The notes: generated by a model not told the origin, from the letters alone. Positions 5,365 through 54,850 are shown, counted from the stretch's first letter. The stretch: 61,503 nucleotides of DNA from Candidatus Vogelbacteria bacterium RIFOXYD1_FULL_46_19 (GCA_001824825.1 MHTK01000004.1:1-61503), one strand, 5' to 3'. Numbers and translations: made by a program.

Positions 5365-5673
5365 ATGCCTGATTTGCACCATCATAGGCTCGAGCGATCC
5401 CTCACTGAACTGGTGGCTAAGTTCATTAACCAAGAAGCCTCCACTCAGTCCTTGGTCACAGTCACCCGTTTGAAACTATCTGAAGATCAGTATCATGCTG
5501 ATATTTACATTTCAGTTTTGCCGGAAGCGGAGGAGCGAGCCGCCTTGGCTTTTGTAAAAAACCATTTGAGCGAATTGCGCGACTATGTCAAAAAGCAGGC
5601 CAACTTTCGCTCACTACCGCACTTTACTGTGGATCTGGATTATGAAGAAAAGGCTCGCCAAATGGGAAGTTAA
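5365..5673 (+). CDS. rbfA: Ribosome-binding factor A
   Basis: Directly after infB; VTVTRLKLSED..ADIYISV and LPHFTVDLD match the RbfA KH pattern. Confidence 0.85.
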   Translation: MPDLHHHRLERSLTELVAKFINQEASTQSLVTVTRLKLSEDQYHADIYISVLPEAEERAALAFVKNHLSELRDYVKKQANFRSLPHFTVDLDYEEKARQMGS

Positions 5674-5678
5674 GTCAT

Positions 5679-5750
5679 GGCCTGGTGGCGAAGTGGTAAC
5701 GCAGCGGTCTGCAAAACCGCGATGCGCGGGTTCAATTCCCGCCCAGGCCT
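5679..5750 (+). tRNA. tRNA-Cys(GCA)
   Basis: GGCCTGG acceptor / CCAGGCC, anticodon arm GCGGT-CTGCAAA-ACCGC, T loop GGTTCAATTCC; CCA not encoded. Confidence 0.95.
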
Positions 5751-5777
5751 CAATAAATTTATATATAATTTAATAAT

Positions 5778-5850
5778 GCCCTGTTAGCTCAGTTGGCCCG
5801 GCCCGCAACGCCTGAGCAAGCTCTAGACTAGCGATGGCGGGCGAGTAGAA
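5778..5850 (+). pseudogene. tRNA-Lys 5' fragment with a palindromic insert at the D loop
   Basis: GCCCTGTTAGCTCAGTTGG is identical to 6015-6033, followed by a 48-bp GC-rich insert and GTAGA; no 3' half. Confidence 0.85.
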
Positions 5851-5900
5851 ATTTAAACAAAAATATGATGACATAATTTGACAAATTTTAGTTTTATAAT

Positions 5901-5956
5901 GCCCTGTTAGCTCAGTTGGCCCGCCTGCCATTGCTACGCTTCAGGCGTTAGTGGGC
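5901..5956 (+). pseudogene. Second tRNA-Lys 5' fragment with the related palindrome in the opposite orientation
   Basis: Same 19-nt tRNA 5' end, then CCCGCCTGCCATTGCTACGCTTCAGGCGTTAGTGGGC. Confidence 0.85.
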
Positions 5957-6014
5957 ACAAGATAGTTAACAACTTAGTGATCAATGATACAATAGTGAAA
6001 ATTTAATCTTATAT

Positions 6015-6087
6015 GCCCTGTTAGCTCAGTTGGTAGAGCAGTCGCCTCTTAAGCGAACGGTCGCAGGTTCGAATCCTGCACGGGGCA
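6015..6087 (+). tRNA. tRNA-Lys(CTT)
   Basis: GCCCTGT/ACGGGGC acceptor, TCGC-CTCTTAA-GCGA anticodon arm, GGTTCGAATCC. Confidence 0.95.
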
Positions 6088-6120
6088 CAAAATAAAAACG
6101 CCGTTAGGCGTTTTTATTTT

Positions 6121-6426
6121 GTGCCCCGTGAGCAAGCCAACTGCTTGGCTTGCGGTCAGGATTCGAACACCGGAGTTATGTTTGGTAAGCTTGCCAAACA
6201 AACGAGGTGGTGCCCAGACCAAAGTGAGTGGCGACGAGCTTTGAGTCGCGGGAGAATCCTGCCCCTAACTGCTTTGGTCGTGTGCAGGATTCGAAGAGGC
6301 TAAACATATCGCAGTGATCCGCCTTTGGCGGAGAAACGAGATGTGAAGCCTGTACCGTTCCCGCCCGCCTGCCATCGCCTGCTGGCTTAGGCGCTGGCGG
6401 GCAGGTAGGGGGAGAATCCTGCACCA
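6121..6426 (+). repeat. Two tandem tRNA-anchored structured mini-elements (class B then class A) tailored to tRNA-Lys
   Basis: CAGGATTCGAA...GAGAATCCTG arms repeated twice around conserved cores. Confidence 0.85.
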
Positions 6427-6512
6427 ACTGCCGGACGACTTTAAGACTTAGTAAGCAAAACAATAGCCCAACTTTTTAAAATATGGTAGCATCTAGAATG
6501 TTAACAACTAAA

Positions 6513-6594
6513 GCCCGGGTGGCGGAATTGGTATACGCGCACGACTTAAAATCGTGTCTCGAAAGGGATGCGGGTTCGATTCCCGCCCCGGGCA
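6513..6594 (+). tRNA. tRNA-Leu(TAA)
   Basis: GCCCGGG/CCCGGGC acceptor, CACGA-CTTAAAA-TCGTG, long variable arm. Confidence 0.95.
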
Positions 6595-6612
6595 CCTGTT
6601 ATTTGAAAGACC

Positions 6613-6696
6613 GCTGGAGTGGTGAAATTGGTAGACACGCAGCGTTCAGAGCGCTGTAGGGGCAACCCTATGGAGGTTCAAATCCTCTCTCCAGCA
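6613..6696 (+). tRNA. tRNA-Leu(CAG)
   Basis: GCTGGAG/CTCCAGC acceptor, CAGCG-TTCAGAG-CGCTG, long variable arm. Confidence 0.95.
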
Positions 6697-6723
6697 CACG
6701 TTTCGCTGTAAGCAAAAGATAGA

Positions 6724-6850
6724 GTGGTGGAGAAGCGACTGAACTGCTTCCGTCGCGTGAGAATTTGAAAGACTTTTCGTTGCCAAGCACCTGGTAAAGA
6801 TGACTTGGTCGAAAAGTACCAGCCCCCGTAGGGGGAAAGTCCTCTCTCCC
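6724..6850 (+). repeat. tRNA-anchored mini-element (class C) tailored to tRNA-Leu(CAG)
   Basis: GTGGTGGAGA..GAGAATTTGAA antisense arm, ACTTTTCG..CGAAAAGT stem, CCCCC-GTA-GGGGG, AAGTCCTCTCTCC sense arm. Confidence 0.8.
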
Positions 6851-6894
6851 GAAGGAAATAAACAAAGCGTAGGTTTTCAACACAAAAAAAATAT

Positions 6895-6976
6895 GCCGGG
6901 GTGGCGAAATTGGTAGACGCACTAGCCTTAGGAGCTAGCGGAGCAATCCATGGAGGTTCAAATCCTCTCCCCGGCA
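6895..6976 (+). tRNA. tRNA-Leu(TAG)
   Basis: GCCGGGG/CCCCGGC acceptor, CTAGC-CTTAGGA-GCTAG, long variable arm. Confidence 0.95.
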
Positions 6977-6992
6977 CAAAATTGAAAATTTT

Positions 6993-7126
6993 GAGCCGGG
7001 AACAAGTAAACTGCTTTACTTGTGGGAGGGGATTTGAAGAGGTTGATCATGTTGCAGTGAGCGGAGCGAAACGAGACGCGAAACCTGTACAGATTCCGTA
7101 GGAATCGAGTCCTCTCCCCGGCACCA
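6993..7126 (+). repeat. tRNA-anchored mini-element (class A) tailored to tRNA-Leu(TAG)
   Basis: GGAGGGGATTTGAA antisense arm, AGGTT..AACCT-GTAC, GATTCC-GTA-GGAATC, sense copy TCCTCTCCCCGGCACCA. Confidence 0.85.
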
Positions 7127-7191
7127 GTAGTAACTTGTTTGGCACCCTCCACTCCCCTTTTTAAGCCTTAAATCGAGGCGGATTTTTATCG

Positions 7192-7220
7192 TTGACTTTT
7201 AGGACTGAAAATGTTATAAT
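7192..7220 (+). promoter_or_regulatory. Sigma70-type promoter of the SPFH operon
   Basis: TTGACT-17 bp-TATAAT with an extended -10 TG. Confidence 0.8.
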
Positions 7221-7274
7221 TAAAGAAGTGAAATAGCTGTTTGACAACCGAACAGACATACAAGGAGAAGAAAG

Positions 7275-8633
7275 ATGTTTTGGTTAGGAATAATAATAGT
7301 CGTATCGACTTTCGCTTTAATCCTGATCCCAGGGGGGGTCTATATCTTTCAAAGAACGAAAGACGGAACAGATAACCAAGACATTTGGTTATCTCGTCCT
7401 GTTGTGGCGAGTGCAATTTATCTCGTCATAACCACCCTCTCTATAGTCGGGCTATACGCCGACTATCAACTGAAGTGGCCATACTGGTCATGGACAGTTT
7501 TCATCCTTCTCTTGATTCCCCTCCACTTAATCCTGTCCATCAGAAAAGTGGACATCGATGAGCTCGGAGTCATTCTCTTCTTCGGAAGAGTAGTTCAAGA
7601 TTTGGAGAAAACCGGCCCAGTCTGGATCCCGTGGCCACTGTATCAAATTGAACAAGTGACTGCACATATGCAGGAACTTGAACTCCCGGCGGCATCTTCT
7701 AAGATTTGGCGCGGGGAGATTGATGGTATGCCAAAGGACCAAGGTCTGCAGCCGGCATTTCGAGTAGTTCACCTGGCTCAAGACAATGAGGAATACCTGA
7801 AGAGCCTAAGGAACCTCGGTTACAAGATACCATCAGATGAGGAGATGGTGAAAAATGAGGCACAGGATAAAAGTGAATTAGATGCCTTATTCCGTAGACG
7901 CATAACTTCGGAAGTCGAAATATTCATAAGATGGAGAGTCTCCCCAGGAAACGCCGCTAGGTTCCTTAGAAACTATGGGGGTATCGAAGCGGTTAACTCC
8001 CAACTCGAAGACACCGTCAAAGGGACCGTCCTTGGGAACTTGGCCAAAATGAGCGCCGGAACAGCCCTTACACTCATAGACACCCTCAACGCTCAACTCA
8101 GAGACGAGTTAGACATAAGTCTAATCTCATTAGTACGATCTAATCACGGTTCTTCAGAAATTTCTGAACTGAGTCCGGAAGAATTCCGCGGACTTCCAGA
8201 GAAGGAAAAAAGGAAATTGATCGGCTCTCTCGGAATTGTATTTGAGGAAGCCCGGATCAAAGCTCTTAACCTCAATCATGCTTTGAATAAGTCGATGGCG
8301 GGGGCCGCCCAGGCTCAGTACGATAAACTCGATATCGAAGCAAGAGCTGAGGCTGAGAAGACTCGTTTGTCCAGAGAGGGTGAAGGTAAAGCTGAGGCAG
8401 CTAAACAGTTACTTCTGGCAGAAGCCGAAGGTCAAGCAGCTTTGGCAGAAGTCGCCGCCAGCGAAGGCGGGCAAGCTGCTCTGGCTTTCAAAGCCTTACA
8501 AACTGGACTGGAACAGTCTAAACACACCATCATCCCTGCTGGAGATGGCTTTGCTAGCCTAATGGGCCTAGCCGTTTCCGCCAAAGAAGTGCTGAAGAAT
8601 CAAGATCAAGGAGAAAAGGAGAACTCCGAATGA
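7275..8633 (+). CDS. SPFH (band 7/HflK-C-like) domain membrane protein
   Basis: N-terminal TMs, ELGVILFFGRVVQDLEKTGPVWIPWP, and a C-terminal A/E/K-rich coiled coil (AEAEKTRLSREGEGKAEA). Confidence 0.75.
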   Translation: MFWLGIIIVVSTFALILIPGGVYIFQRTKDGTDNQDIWLSRPVVASAIYLVITTLSIVGLYADYQLKWPYWSWTVFILLLIPLHLILSIRKVDIDELGVILFFGRVVQDLEKTGPVWIPWPLYQIEQVTAHMQELELPAASSKIWRGEIDGMPKDQGLQPAFRVVHLAQDNEEYLKSLRNLGYKIPSDEEMVKNEAQDKSELDALFRRRITSEVEIFIRWRVSPGNAARFLRNYGGIEAVNSQLEDTVKGTVLGNLAKMSAGTALTLIDTLNAQLRDELDISLISLVRSNHGSSEISELSPEEFRGLPEKEKRKLIGSLGIVFEEARIKALNLNHALNKSMAGAAQAQYDKLDIEARAEAEKTRLSREGEGKAEAAKQLLLAEAEGQAALAEVAASEGGQAALAFKALQTGLEQSKHTIIPAGDGFASLMGLAVSAKEVLKNQDQGEKENSE

Positions 8634-26069: not shown

Positions 26070-26240
26070 TGGTGTGCTTCGCACTCTAGATTGTTGTGGT
26101 CCACAATATTTTGTTTTTCGTCAAAAACAAAATTTCCAGACCCGGTCTTAGTTGTTTTTCTTGCTAGAAAAACATACTTCCGACTTCACACATCGCTTAT
26201 CAAACTAAAGCAGTTTAGTTTGAATAAGTCTCGTGTGACC
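26070..26240 (-). repeat. Orphan class-B mini-element with no adjacent tRNA
   Basis: AACTGCTT-loop hairpin, then CGGAAGTATGTTT-hairpin-AAACAAC, resembling CCGGAGTTATGTTT-hairpin-AAACAAAC at 6170-6215. Confidence 0.6.
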
Positions 26241-26586
26241 CGTTACGGAACACGAGTCGAACTTTTAAAAAATGGATTAGGAAGTTAATCGCTGCGTTCA
26301 TGGCAGATGAAGAGTCAAAGCGATCAGTGGATGGAAGTGATCGCGCTGACTTGGAGGTAGTGTAGCGAATGATAAGGATGGGAGAAAGAAGGTCAAATAT
26401 GGCGAGATAGATATAGAGATAAAAAAAGGCGCGCTTCCAGATGGATAGCGCGCCCCTAGTCTTTCGCCCTGGTCGGACTAAAGACGAAACCCATAAGGGG
26501 TTTCCGGAGACTCCTGACCAAATCCTGCGTTGCTCACAAGATGCAAAAACTGGCAATGGAAACATTGTCAGTTTTTGCATAATTCC

Positions 26587-27740: not shown

Positions 27741-28007
27741 AATAGGACAAATTCTGTAGCTCACTAGCTGGTAAGAGATTCTCAAAAGTAATCGTTTCCA
27801 GTGTTGTGGTTACAGATAACTCTTGTTGTCATCATGGTTACTGTATGAGATTAAGAGCTGTGGTTTTTGTGATAGACTACAGCTTCCGCCAAGGGCTCCC
27901 GAACCTTGGCGGCCTTTTTATTTAGGAAGGGGATATTAGTGGAACGCCACGTGTAAAATTTTATGTGGTCCCCAATAATTCACTCGTTGCCACTCGTGAA
28001 TTTTCCA

Positions 28008-28137
28008 GACCCCTACGGGGAATCTTTCCCTACGGGAACGGTACAGGCTTCACATCTCGTTTCGCTACGCTCACTGCGATATGTTCAGCCTCTTCGATTC
28101 CCCGACGTGAGCAAAGCAGTTTGCTCACTTAGGGTCA
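28008..28137 (-). repeat. tRNA-anchored mini-element (class A) tailored to tRNA-Glu
   Basis: Minus strand: TGACCCTA[AACTGCTT hairpin]GGGAATCGAA, GAGGCTGAACATATCGCAGTG..CCTGTACCG, TTCCC-GTA-GGGAA, GATTCCCCGTAGGGGTC. Confidence 0.85.
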
Positions 28138-28184
28138 CTCAACAAAAATGGCCCGCCATAATAGCGGGCTCATTTTTGTACGAG

Positions 28185-41233: not shown

Positions 41234-41297
41234 GATTGAACGAACTTTTGAGCTCCTTGTTTTAGTTGGATGCCATAAATCTTTATCAAAGTTGAAA

Positions 41298-41425
41298 GGG
41301 TAGGGAGATCGGTCACAACTCTTCTGCTTCGATAAATCTACGCTACGAAGGTCGCGACCCCGCCTCGCGCCGGAGTCCTGCTGGTCTCCGACTTCGTGCG
41401 CTCCGGCTTTCGATTCTCCCTACCC
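41298..41425 (-). repeat. tRNA-anchored mini-element (class B) tailored to tRNA-Gly
   Basis: Minus strand: GGGTAGGGAGAATCGAA, GCCGGAGCGCACGAAGTC..GGCGCGAGG, sense GATCTCCCTACCC. Confidence 0.85.
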
Positions 41426-41475
41426 ACTACTAAAACATACTCCCTCGAACCGGCAGTTCGAGCTCCTTGTTTTAG

Positions 41476-41546
41476 TGCGGGTAGGGAGAATCGAACTCCC
41501 GTCTCAACCTTGGGAAGGTCGCGTCATACCACTAAACTATACCCGC
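41476..41546 (-). tRNA. tRNA-Gly(CCC)
   Basis: GCGGGTA/TACCCGC acceptor, GACC-TTCCCAA-GGTT, AGTTCGATTCT. Confidence 0.93.
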
Positions 41547-54697: not shown

Positions 54698-54850
54698 TGC
54701 GGAGGATGAGGGATTTGATTCCTACAGAATCTGTTCAGGTTGACGATATTTTTCTTCTCTAATTCGAAAAATATCAGGCAACCTTTTCTAATCCCTCCTT
54801 CCGCTTGGCGGAACCGCCCCACAGGCGGCCTCCGCAAAAAAGCTTGCGGA
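54698..54850 (-). repeat. Class-A mini-element tailored to a tRNA-Ser but with no tRNA beside it
   Basis: Minus strand: TCCGCA-hairpin-TGCGGAGG[hairpin]GGAGGGATTAGAA, AGGTTG..CAACCT, GATTCT-GTA-GGAATC, AAATCCCTCATCCTCCGCA. Confidence 0.8.

Follow-up and report, generated by a model that had tools for sequence, protein, structure and literature searches.

tRNA-flanking units in the Vogelbacteria window

A family of short structured units lies behind the transfer RNA (tRNA) genes of a 61,503-nucleotide stretch of Candidatus Vogelbacteria bacterium RIFOXYD1_FULL_46_19 (GCA_001824825.1, MHTK01000004.1:1-61503; the whole stretch is called the window below), and some of these units carry a hairpin with the constant eight-nucleotide loop AACTGCTT. 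The units are noncoding, ~130-200 nt in length, and located directly 3′ of tRNA or transfer-messenger RNA (tmRNA) genes. Eight of the 11 tRNA genes in the window have one or two units on their 3′ side, while those for Cys, Leu(TAA), and Ser have none. A full unit usually starts with a terminator-like hairpin and a T-run, followed by an antisense arm, namely an inverted copy of the 3′ end of the gene (acceptor 3′ strand, T-stem 3′ strand, and T-loop), then by a conserved core, and finally by a sense arm repeating the 3′ end of the gene. The three core classes (A, B, and C) drawn in an earlier reading of the same sequence (the original prediction) could be followed; the class A consensus is GAAGAGGYUGA..AU.UCGCAGUGA-(hairpin)-GAAACGAG....GAARCCUGUACC-(hairpin with GUA loop).

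Two tRNA-Lys units are stacked at 6110-6433 on the plus strand. The first consists of an antisense arm, a hairpin, a class B core, and a truncated sense arm; its complete hairpin, A-GCAAGCC-AACTGCTT-GGCTTGC-GG (6131-6155, plus), is flanked by the acceptor-antisense sequence GTGCCCCGTG on one side and by the T-arm-antisense sequence T-CAGGATTCGAA on the other. The second starts with a half hairpin composed of AACTGCTT and TGGTCGT(GTG) (6267-6284, plus) and continues with T-arm antisense, a class A core with a GC-rich palindrome inserted at 6364-6404, and the sense arm GAATCCTGCAC. The class C unit of tRNA-Leu(CAG) (6720-6854, plus) contains the hairpin A-GCGACTG-AACTGCTT-CCGTCGC-GT with one mismatch (6734-6758, plus), and the class A unit of tRNA-Leu(TAG) (6990-7127, plus), whose sense arm ends in ...CCCCGGC-A-CCA, contains A-ACAAGTA-AACTGCTT-TACTTGT-GG (7001-7025, plus). 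On the minus strand, the tRNA-Glu unit (27975-28142) combines a class A core and the hairpin A-GTGAGCA-AACTGCTT-TGCTCAC-GT (28105-28129) with a class-B-type 3′ module, GGTCTGGAAA-hairpin-ATTGGGGACCAC. An orphan hairpin on the same strand, CTTATTCAAACTA-AACTGCTT-TAGTTTGATAAG (26196-26228), forms the tip of a longer stem (TCACAC.../...GTGTGA) in a neighborhood free of tRNA genes, where it overlaps the stop codon of an open reading frame (ORF) at 26215-26580.

Context of the constant loop within the window

The six AACTGCTT sites reported in the original prediction were all recovered, at 6139, 6267, 6742, and 7009 on the plus strand and at 26208-26215 and 28114-28121 on the minus strand, and no further exact copy is present in the window. 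The earlier estimate of about two chance occurrences for an 8-mer is sound, as dinucleotide-preserving shuffles contain 2.67 ± 1.87 copies, but the count of six is not significant by itself, since six or more copies were reached in 11 of 100 shuffles. The significance of AACTGCTT comes from its context, the raw number being weak. Among 8-nt loops, it alone recurs within the window, and a perfect stem of at least 5 bp closes four of the six sites, compared with a background of 0.0014 per position; perfect stems of at least 7 bp are likewise found at four of the six.

The proposed stems GCAAGCC/GGCTTGC, ACAAGTA/TACTTGT, GTGAGCA/TGCTCAC, and, for the orphan, CTTATTCAAACTA/TAGTTTGATAAG were borne out. 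The stem at 6742 (GCGACTG/CCGTCGC) has one mismatch and is perfect in the sister strain L009 (GCGACTG-AACTGCTT-CAGTCGC). The site at 6267 was placed correctly, but what had been taken for a weak stem is a half hairpin, a truncated remnant without its 5′ half-stem. The window reads AACTGCTT-TGGTCGT-GTG-CAGGATTCGAA at this site, with a loop and a 3′ half-stem identical to those of a complete L009 hairpin (ACGACCA-AACTGCTT-TGGTCGT), and in the window an extra unit takes the place of the 5′ half-stem. The AACTGCC sequence near 41450, previously suggested to be a loop variant, is not homologous: it is located at 41452-41458 (minus) and belongs to the terminator hairpin of tRNA-Gly, CTCGAAC-TGCCG-GTTCGAG (41444-41462, minus; then ...GTTTTAG), a structure outside the family, with its AAC within the stem. 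None of the AACTGCTT hairpins was called as an intrinsic terminator by a terminator scan; they are followed by G(T) and T-arm antisense (e.g., GGTCAGGATTCGAA) without a T-run.

Conservation of the hairpin in related genomes

Relatives were sampled as syntenic infB-rbfA-tRNA loci of groundwater source, and exact AACTGCTT copies were counted over 215 kb comprising the window and 16 fetched related loci. The tRNA proximity and hairpin context that the original prediction had proposed for a genome-wide check are both evident in this census: 10 of the 15 exact hits follow a same-strand tRNA or tmRNA gene at a distance of 32-179 nt on its 3′ side, eight of them with a perfect 7-bp stem, while the four ordinary background hits are stemless. 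The hairpin occupies the same place behind the Lys, Leu(CAG), Leu(TAG), Glu, Tyr, Asn, and Ser tRNA genes and the tmRNA gene, in genomes with IF-2 proteins 59-99% identical to that of the window. The lineage with the closest IF-2 is Candidatus Vogelbacteria (66% identity). Hairpin units in the relatives follow tRNA-Tyr in L001 (loop AACTACTT) and L015, tRNA-Lys in L002 (loop AACTACTT) and L011 (loop AACTGCTC), tRNA-Asn in L004, tRNA-Ser in L006, the tmRNA gene in L008 (loop AACTGTTT, with arms matching tmRNA), tRNA-Lys and tRNA-Leu(CAG) in L009, and tRNA-Lys and tRNA-Leu in L013. A Yonathbacteria locus (L016) has hairpin-free units, and no units were seen in a Nomurabacteria locus (L017). Matches to a class A core 23-mer were found in two species-representative genomes, both Patescibacteria metagenome-assembled genomes, and in six metagenome contigs, while a search of viral contigs turned up neither the class A core nor the class B 23-mer nor the hairpin consensus. 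The hairpin belongs to an element family of Vogelbacteria-like Patescibacteria, ultra-small bacteria of groundwater.

Alignment of 15 complete copies from nine contigs revealed a common form: A, a variable 7-bp stem, the loop AACURYUU, and G(U), with the leading A and the trailing G(T) nearly constant. The loop (AACTRYTT as DNA) opens with an invariant A-A-C-T in all 15 hairpins, after which come R, Y, T, and T/C. Pairing in the stem reaches 97%, with compensatory changes at six of its seven pairs and 37 double-change cells, a level of covariation matched by none of 500 shuffles; shifted partners give only 27-45% pairing. The position is the same in 14 of the 15 copies across genomes, namely the acceptor/T-stem boundary of the inverted copy. 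A fixed loop beside a fully turned-over stem is the signature of a recognition stem-loop and would not result from recent copying, while stems that differ from copy to copy with compensation, at a fixed position, point to an inherited and selected module rather than to repeated landing. Judged by this alignment, the AACTGCTT hairpin is a genuine conserved and selected stem-loop module. The hairpin interrupts the antisense copy of the tRNA 3′ end, as originally described, and always does so between the acceptor and T-stem parts. The description "repeatedly inserted" is misleading, given the fixed position and the full compensation of the varying stems, and the proposed recognition loop agrees with the pattern expected for one, a constant loop on a freely covarying stem.

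Folding and covariation of the units

A consensus structure predicted by RNAalifold from ten class A units contains 39 pairs, of which 23 show compensatory changes. A covariance model built from the same ten units found 25 units in 13 sources; 91% of the cells in these hits are paired and 37 of the 39 pairs have compensatory changes, in an alignment that is fitted to the model and therefore biased towards the modeled structure. One hit (36.5 bits) is an orphan class A/C-like unit at 54698-54824 on the minus strand of the window, with arms GCGGAGG.../...CCTCCGC, in which the place of the AACTGCTT hairpin is taken by two other small hairpins; tRNA gene calling gave nothing alongside. The core has 20 G-U against 6 A-C pairs and the arms have 19 against 9, suggesting that it is the tRNA-sense strand that folds, either as RNA or as single-stranded DNA.

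The tRNA-Glu unit folds into a three-way junction (-55.7 kcal/mol, z = -4.5), and the tRNA-Leu(TAG) unit has the same outer stems (z = -2.9). The hairpin is predicted to be the third arm of this junction, consistent with the earlier proposal that it bulges out of the antisense arm. The prevention of a perfect duplex by such a bulge is not a general requirement, since the Val, Phe, Arg, and Gly units are hairpin-free and keep continuous arms. When tRNA-Glu was folded together with its unit, the antisense arm paired with the 3′ end of the tRNA itself across the terminator and the distal sense arm paired with the tRNA 5′ strand (z = -10), suggesting that the antisense arm has two possible partners. 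Both arms of the Glu unit are shifted jointly from the tRNA sequence (CCGGG/CCCGG to CGGGG/CCCCG), and those of the Val unit behave alike; such joint changes indicate that the arms pair with each other.

No cis partner for the loop was found in the class A core GCAGU or in the tRNA D-loop. A pseudoknot between ACUGC of the loop and GCAGU of the class A core was rejected because the AACUACUU loops of L001 and L002 leave GCAGU uncompensated and because classes B and C lack GCAGU, and pairing with the D-loop sequence CAGUU was rejected because most host genes (Glu, Leu, tmRNA) do not have this sequence. The 8-nt loop does not fit mimicry of an anticodon loop or a T-loop. A hammerhead ribozyme has a CUGANGA...GAAA core with three stems in a set order; the class A core reads GCAGUGA-(stem)-GAAAC, has no stem III after GAA, and gave no Rfam hit, so this candidate was also discarded.

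Turnover between closely related strains

Turnover of the elements is rapid even among close relatives, as is evident from comparison of the window with the sister strain L009 (IF-2 99%, RbfA 95%, and DNA ~93% identical). The class B Lys unit is missing from L009, where an identical AACTGCTT-TGGTCGTGTG-CAGGATTCGAA sequence is followed by a class C core instead of the class A core of the window, and the L009 Leu(TAG) unit differs from that of the window and is hairpin-free. A block of three tRNA-Leu genes with their units is inverted between the window (6513-6978) and L009 (3647-4079), with co-linear flanks on both sides. At tRNA-Leu(TAG) of the window, the T-loop TTCAAAT of the tRNA is matched by the antisense arm, while the distal sense arm retains CGAGT, which is the T-loop of the L009 tRNA. 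This pattern fits insertion in the T-loop by an element that provides the gene with a new 3′ end, in a history made ambiguous by the inversion and a shared trailer. DNA sequencing runs gave a noisy strain-level indel signal at this region, to which tRNAs of many organisms map.

The second unit of stacked arrays begins at the hairpin loop and has lost its 5′ half-stem, as observed at 6267 in the window, for the second of the Lys units in L013, and for the second of the Tyr units in L001 (loop CTGCG). A rolling-circle nick site or CRISPR-repeat-like unit junctions were considered and rejected, because the two hairpins of one array have different stems. A DNA-uptake sequence was rejected likewise, as the 215-kb census contains no excess of AACTGCTT outside the units.

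Small GIY-YIG ORFs in sister units

Two sister units contain small ORFs of ~80 aa that encode only a GIY-YIG domain (Pfam E = 4e-14 and 9e-13). The first (L001, 2572-2805) is embedded in a class C core behind tRNA-Trp, in the central loop of that core. The second (L009, 2372-2614) is associated with a 5′ duplication of tRNA-Cys, where it lies between a 5′ fragment that breaks off at the anticodon loop and the complete tRNA-Cys gene, within which its stop codon falls. Bounded segments of 130-320 bp otherwise contain no integrase, recombinase, or other ORF.

Comparison with known systems

Only tRNAs reach the threshold in an Rfam 15 scan of the window, a permissive scan of 5500-7400 returned chance-level miRNA-type hits only, and no relevant match to the hairpin or its host elements was found in the literature searched. 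The nearest known systems each share some features with the units but fail in a defining one. The ends of tRNA and tmRNA genes are classic landing sites of mobile DNA. Tyrosine-integrase islands and prophages that integrate there, with the T-loop as a sublocation, resemble the units in occupying the 3′ end of a gene that is left intact, in having a direct repeat from T-loop to 3′ end at the far side, and in stacking serially beside the gene. The att-like repeat was found in the form of sense arms, which have 0-4 mismatches and lie 130-310 nt downstream (Leu, Val, Phe, and Arg; L004, L009, and L011). In contrast to the islands, the units are only 130-200 bp long and integrase-free, their inverted target copy is split by a hairpin, their core is conserved and covarying, and their arms are tRNA-specific. 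Miniature inverted-repeat transposable elements (MITEs) and the REP/BIME, Correia, ERIC, and RUP elements are similarly small, noncoding, hairpin-rich, multicopy, strain-variable, and mutually nesting. Unlike the constant terminal inverted repeats of MITEs, the arms copy the local tRNA end and differ by locus, and the targets are limited to tRNA and tmRNA flanks. No consistent short target-site duplication was detected; the Gly unit has the 16-nt repeat CTAAAACAAGGAGCTC, and other units have the repeat from T-loop to 3′ end.

As for the hairpin itself, the iron-responsive element, lambda boxB, and the MS2 operator likewise combine a constant loop with a stem conserved as structure only, and the invariant loop and covarying stem pairs of such recognition stem-loops are found here. 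Those hairpins have protein partners, and AACURYUU matches none of their loops. The integron attC and CTX-phi attP sites share with the units a stem kept as structure over sequence, a single folded strand with bulges, and a cassette-like array, but the units have no R/L box consensus and no link to IntI or Xer, and their core is conserved in sequence; in the hairpin alignment, the variable stems do not fit the attC boxes R″/L″...L′/R′ (RYYYAAC/GTTRRRY, with extrahelical bases). Group II introns with their exon-binding sites (EBS1/EBS2), IS110 bridge RNA, and the omega RNAs of TnpB and IscB have two target-complementary segments around a structured RNA and a guide that corresponds to element-flanking sequence, as do the units, which differ by the lack of an adjacent effector gene, by arms that also pair in cis with the sense copy, and by the absence of an Rfam match. 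Finally, the tRNA-like domain of tmRNA, viral tRNA-like structures, and bacterial Y RNA share an acceptor/T-stem-like helix and, in some copies, a CCA end. The units differ from these mimics in having no T-loop or elbow, a large core at the T-loop place, and a different tRNA mimicked in each copy. A retroviral-type primer-binding site was rejected, as the antisense arms complement the gene trailer (AAAA) and not CCA.

Interpretation of the hairpin and alternative explanations

With about as much confidence as doubt, we interpret the hairpin, with its constant loop, compensating stem, and fixed position in a host structure that covaries and turns over fast, as the recognition stem-loop of a probably mobile, non-autonomous family that acts as a single strand folded in the tRNA-sense orientation. 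The elements would be non-autonomous selfish DNA, either mobile or recombining, and the folded strand would be read-through RNA or single-stranded DNA. Pairing of the inverted copy with the direct copy would make the hairpin the third arm of a three-way junction, and its loop would be a sequence-specific docking site for a trans-acting protein on which the elements depend, a candidate partner being the ~80-aa GIY-YIG nuclease embedded in sister units. Several observations weigh against this interpretation, in addition to the bias of the model-fitted alignment described above. The 61.5-kb window holds no GIY-YIG gene. A terminator-like hairpin with a T-run separates the tRNA from the unit in many cases, so that a unit RNA would need read-through or its own promoter; a promoter was looked for in the units and none was found, none of the RNA sequencing runs contains this region, and three metatranscriptomes from the same study matched only tRNAs of other organisms. 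The hairpin is missing from many units (Val, Phe, Arg, and Gly), and other loops are present in some (CCTGCG, AAATTTATTT, and GTA), indicating that it is not essential to every element. No clean empty and filled site with defined ends was found, and the case for mobility therefore comes from strain differences, for which recombination is another possible source.

A rather unlikely alternative is that the unit is a host-beneficial structured noncoding RNA, an acceptor/T-arm mimic read from the tRNA-sense strand, in which the AACUGCUU hairpin stands in for the D and anticodon arms. Its contact would be a protein that handles tRNA, such as an enzyme of processing, CCA addition, or quality control, or a nuclease directed at tRNA and titrated by the mimic. 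In topology, the hairpin is indeed found where the D and anticodon arms would be, between the acceptor and T stems; unpaired nucleotides of the core show strong conservation even between genomes with IF-2 only ~65% identical; and covariation, the predominance of G-U over A-C pairs, the mutual covariation of arms diverging from the tRNA, and four sense arms ending in N73-CCA beside genes without an encoded CCA all agree with a functional RNA. Nevertheless, the units have no T-loop, the same arms occur with several core classes, terminators lie between many units and the tRNA, the promoter and transcript searches were negative, and gain, loss, truncation, and core-class swap between 93%-identical strains would be unusual for a housekeeping RNA. 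Less probable again, and unlikely on our assessment, is a split programmable guide, whose two inverted-copy halves would pair with the strand from T54 to the 3′ end of the tRNA or tmRNA gene or RNA, the hairpin serving as a protein-docking scaffold that aims a trans-acting nuclease or recombinase (e.g., the minimal GIY-YIG protein) at the target. Such a guide would account for antisense arms that in most cases complement the 3′ end of the adjacent tRNA almost perfectly and have often been kept more intact than the sense arm (Phe 20/20, Lys 21/21, Arg, and Gly), for a hairpin that divides them at a fixed place, for GIY-YIG ORFs inside sister units, and for arms behind the tmRNA gene that match tmRNA. 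It does not explain how the arms would be rewritten for a new target; the Glu and Val arms, which have drifted from the tRNA yet stay mutually complementary, argue for cis pairing instead, and the complementarity, including the trailer, is also explicable by quasi-palindrome correction around the terminator. Equally doubtful is the extension of this idea to a self-programming two-part guide for guided homing or gene capture anchored on tRNA genes in bacteria of the candidate phyla radiation (CPR).

It is quite improbable that the hairpin is a tiny independent palindromic insertion that lands secondarily in the antisense arm, in the manner of the GC-rich palindrome of 40-50 bp described below: although that mini-element clearly inserts into loops, hairpin-free units exist, and the orphan copy has a different context (the tip of a longer stem within an ACGAGA...TGTGAAG motif), recent insertions would share a stem sequence, whereas the stems have none in common, compensate at six of seven pairs, and occupy an identical position in 14 of 15 complete copies. 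Least probable is the absence of any function, with the 8-mer retained through recent duplication or as microhomology for recombination between units. The array junctions at the loop noted above (at 6267 in the window and in the Lys array of L013 and the Tyr array of L001) are in line with such microhomology, but the loop is constant beside a fully turned-over stem down to 59% IF-2 identity; because a fixed loop next to a saturated stem cannot be accounted for by recent common descent, this explanation is disfavored.

To our knowledge, no described element has a mirror copy that is adapted to its own target and divided by a hairpin of conserved sequence. Should the loop, as in the preferred selfish-element interpretation, be a protein docking site, it provides a handle for finding the machinery of a widespread, undescribed CPR element family, the constant 8-mer being a simple bait and mutational target, and it would help to explain the fast-changing tRNA flanks, with inversions, stacking, and core swaps between strains ~93% identical. 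A true guide would represent a new type of programmable targeting system, and a true RNA mimic a new class of tRNA-specific decoys or regulators.

Other recurrent sequences associated with the units

A 3′ module of the form GGGTC-KGGAAA-(hairpin with GTGRCRAC loop)-TTATTSNKGACC recurs in the window at 27975-28010 (minus) and 26100-26150 (minus) and in units of L013 and L005; it is common to class B units, the 3′ extension of the Glu unit, and the orphan at 26100-26260. Class B units also share a near-identical 40-mer, TTCGTAGCGTAGATTTATCGAAGCAGAAGAGTTGTGACCGAT, which is present in the Gly unit of the window (~41320-41362, minus) and at 2600-2645 in L002, where IF-2 is 67% identical. The Gly unit (41245-41494, minus) has the 16-nt direct repeat CTAAAACAAGGAGCTC on both flanks, including the ribosome-binding site of a downstream RNHCP-domain gene, indicating that the duplicated target reaches past the tRNA into the trailer.

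The four sense arms ending in N73-CCA are those of Leu(TAG) in the window (7105-7125), Asn in L004, Met in L005, and Tyr in L011. The adjacent tRNA genes end in ...N73-CAA and do not encode CCA, and the four arms may represent either remnants of an earlier gene end or functional tRNA-like 3′ ends.

The GC-rich palindromic mini-element, ~40-50 bp in length (CCCGCCTGCC...GGCGGGC), interrupts hairpin loops. It occurs at 5788-5845 and 5903-5960, in each case 3′ of a truncated tRNA-Lys 5′ fragment cut in the D-loop, at 6364-6404 in the GTA-loop hairpin of the class A Lys unit, and in a hairpin of the L002 Cys unit.

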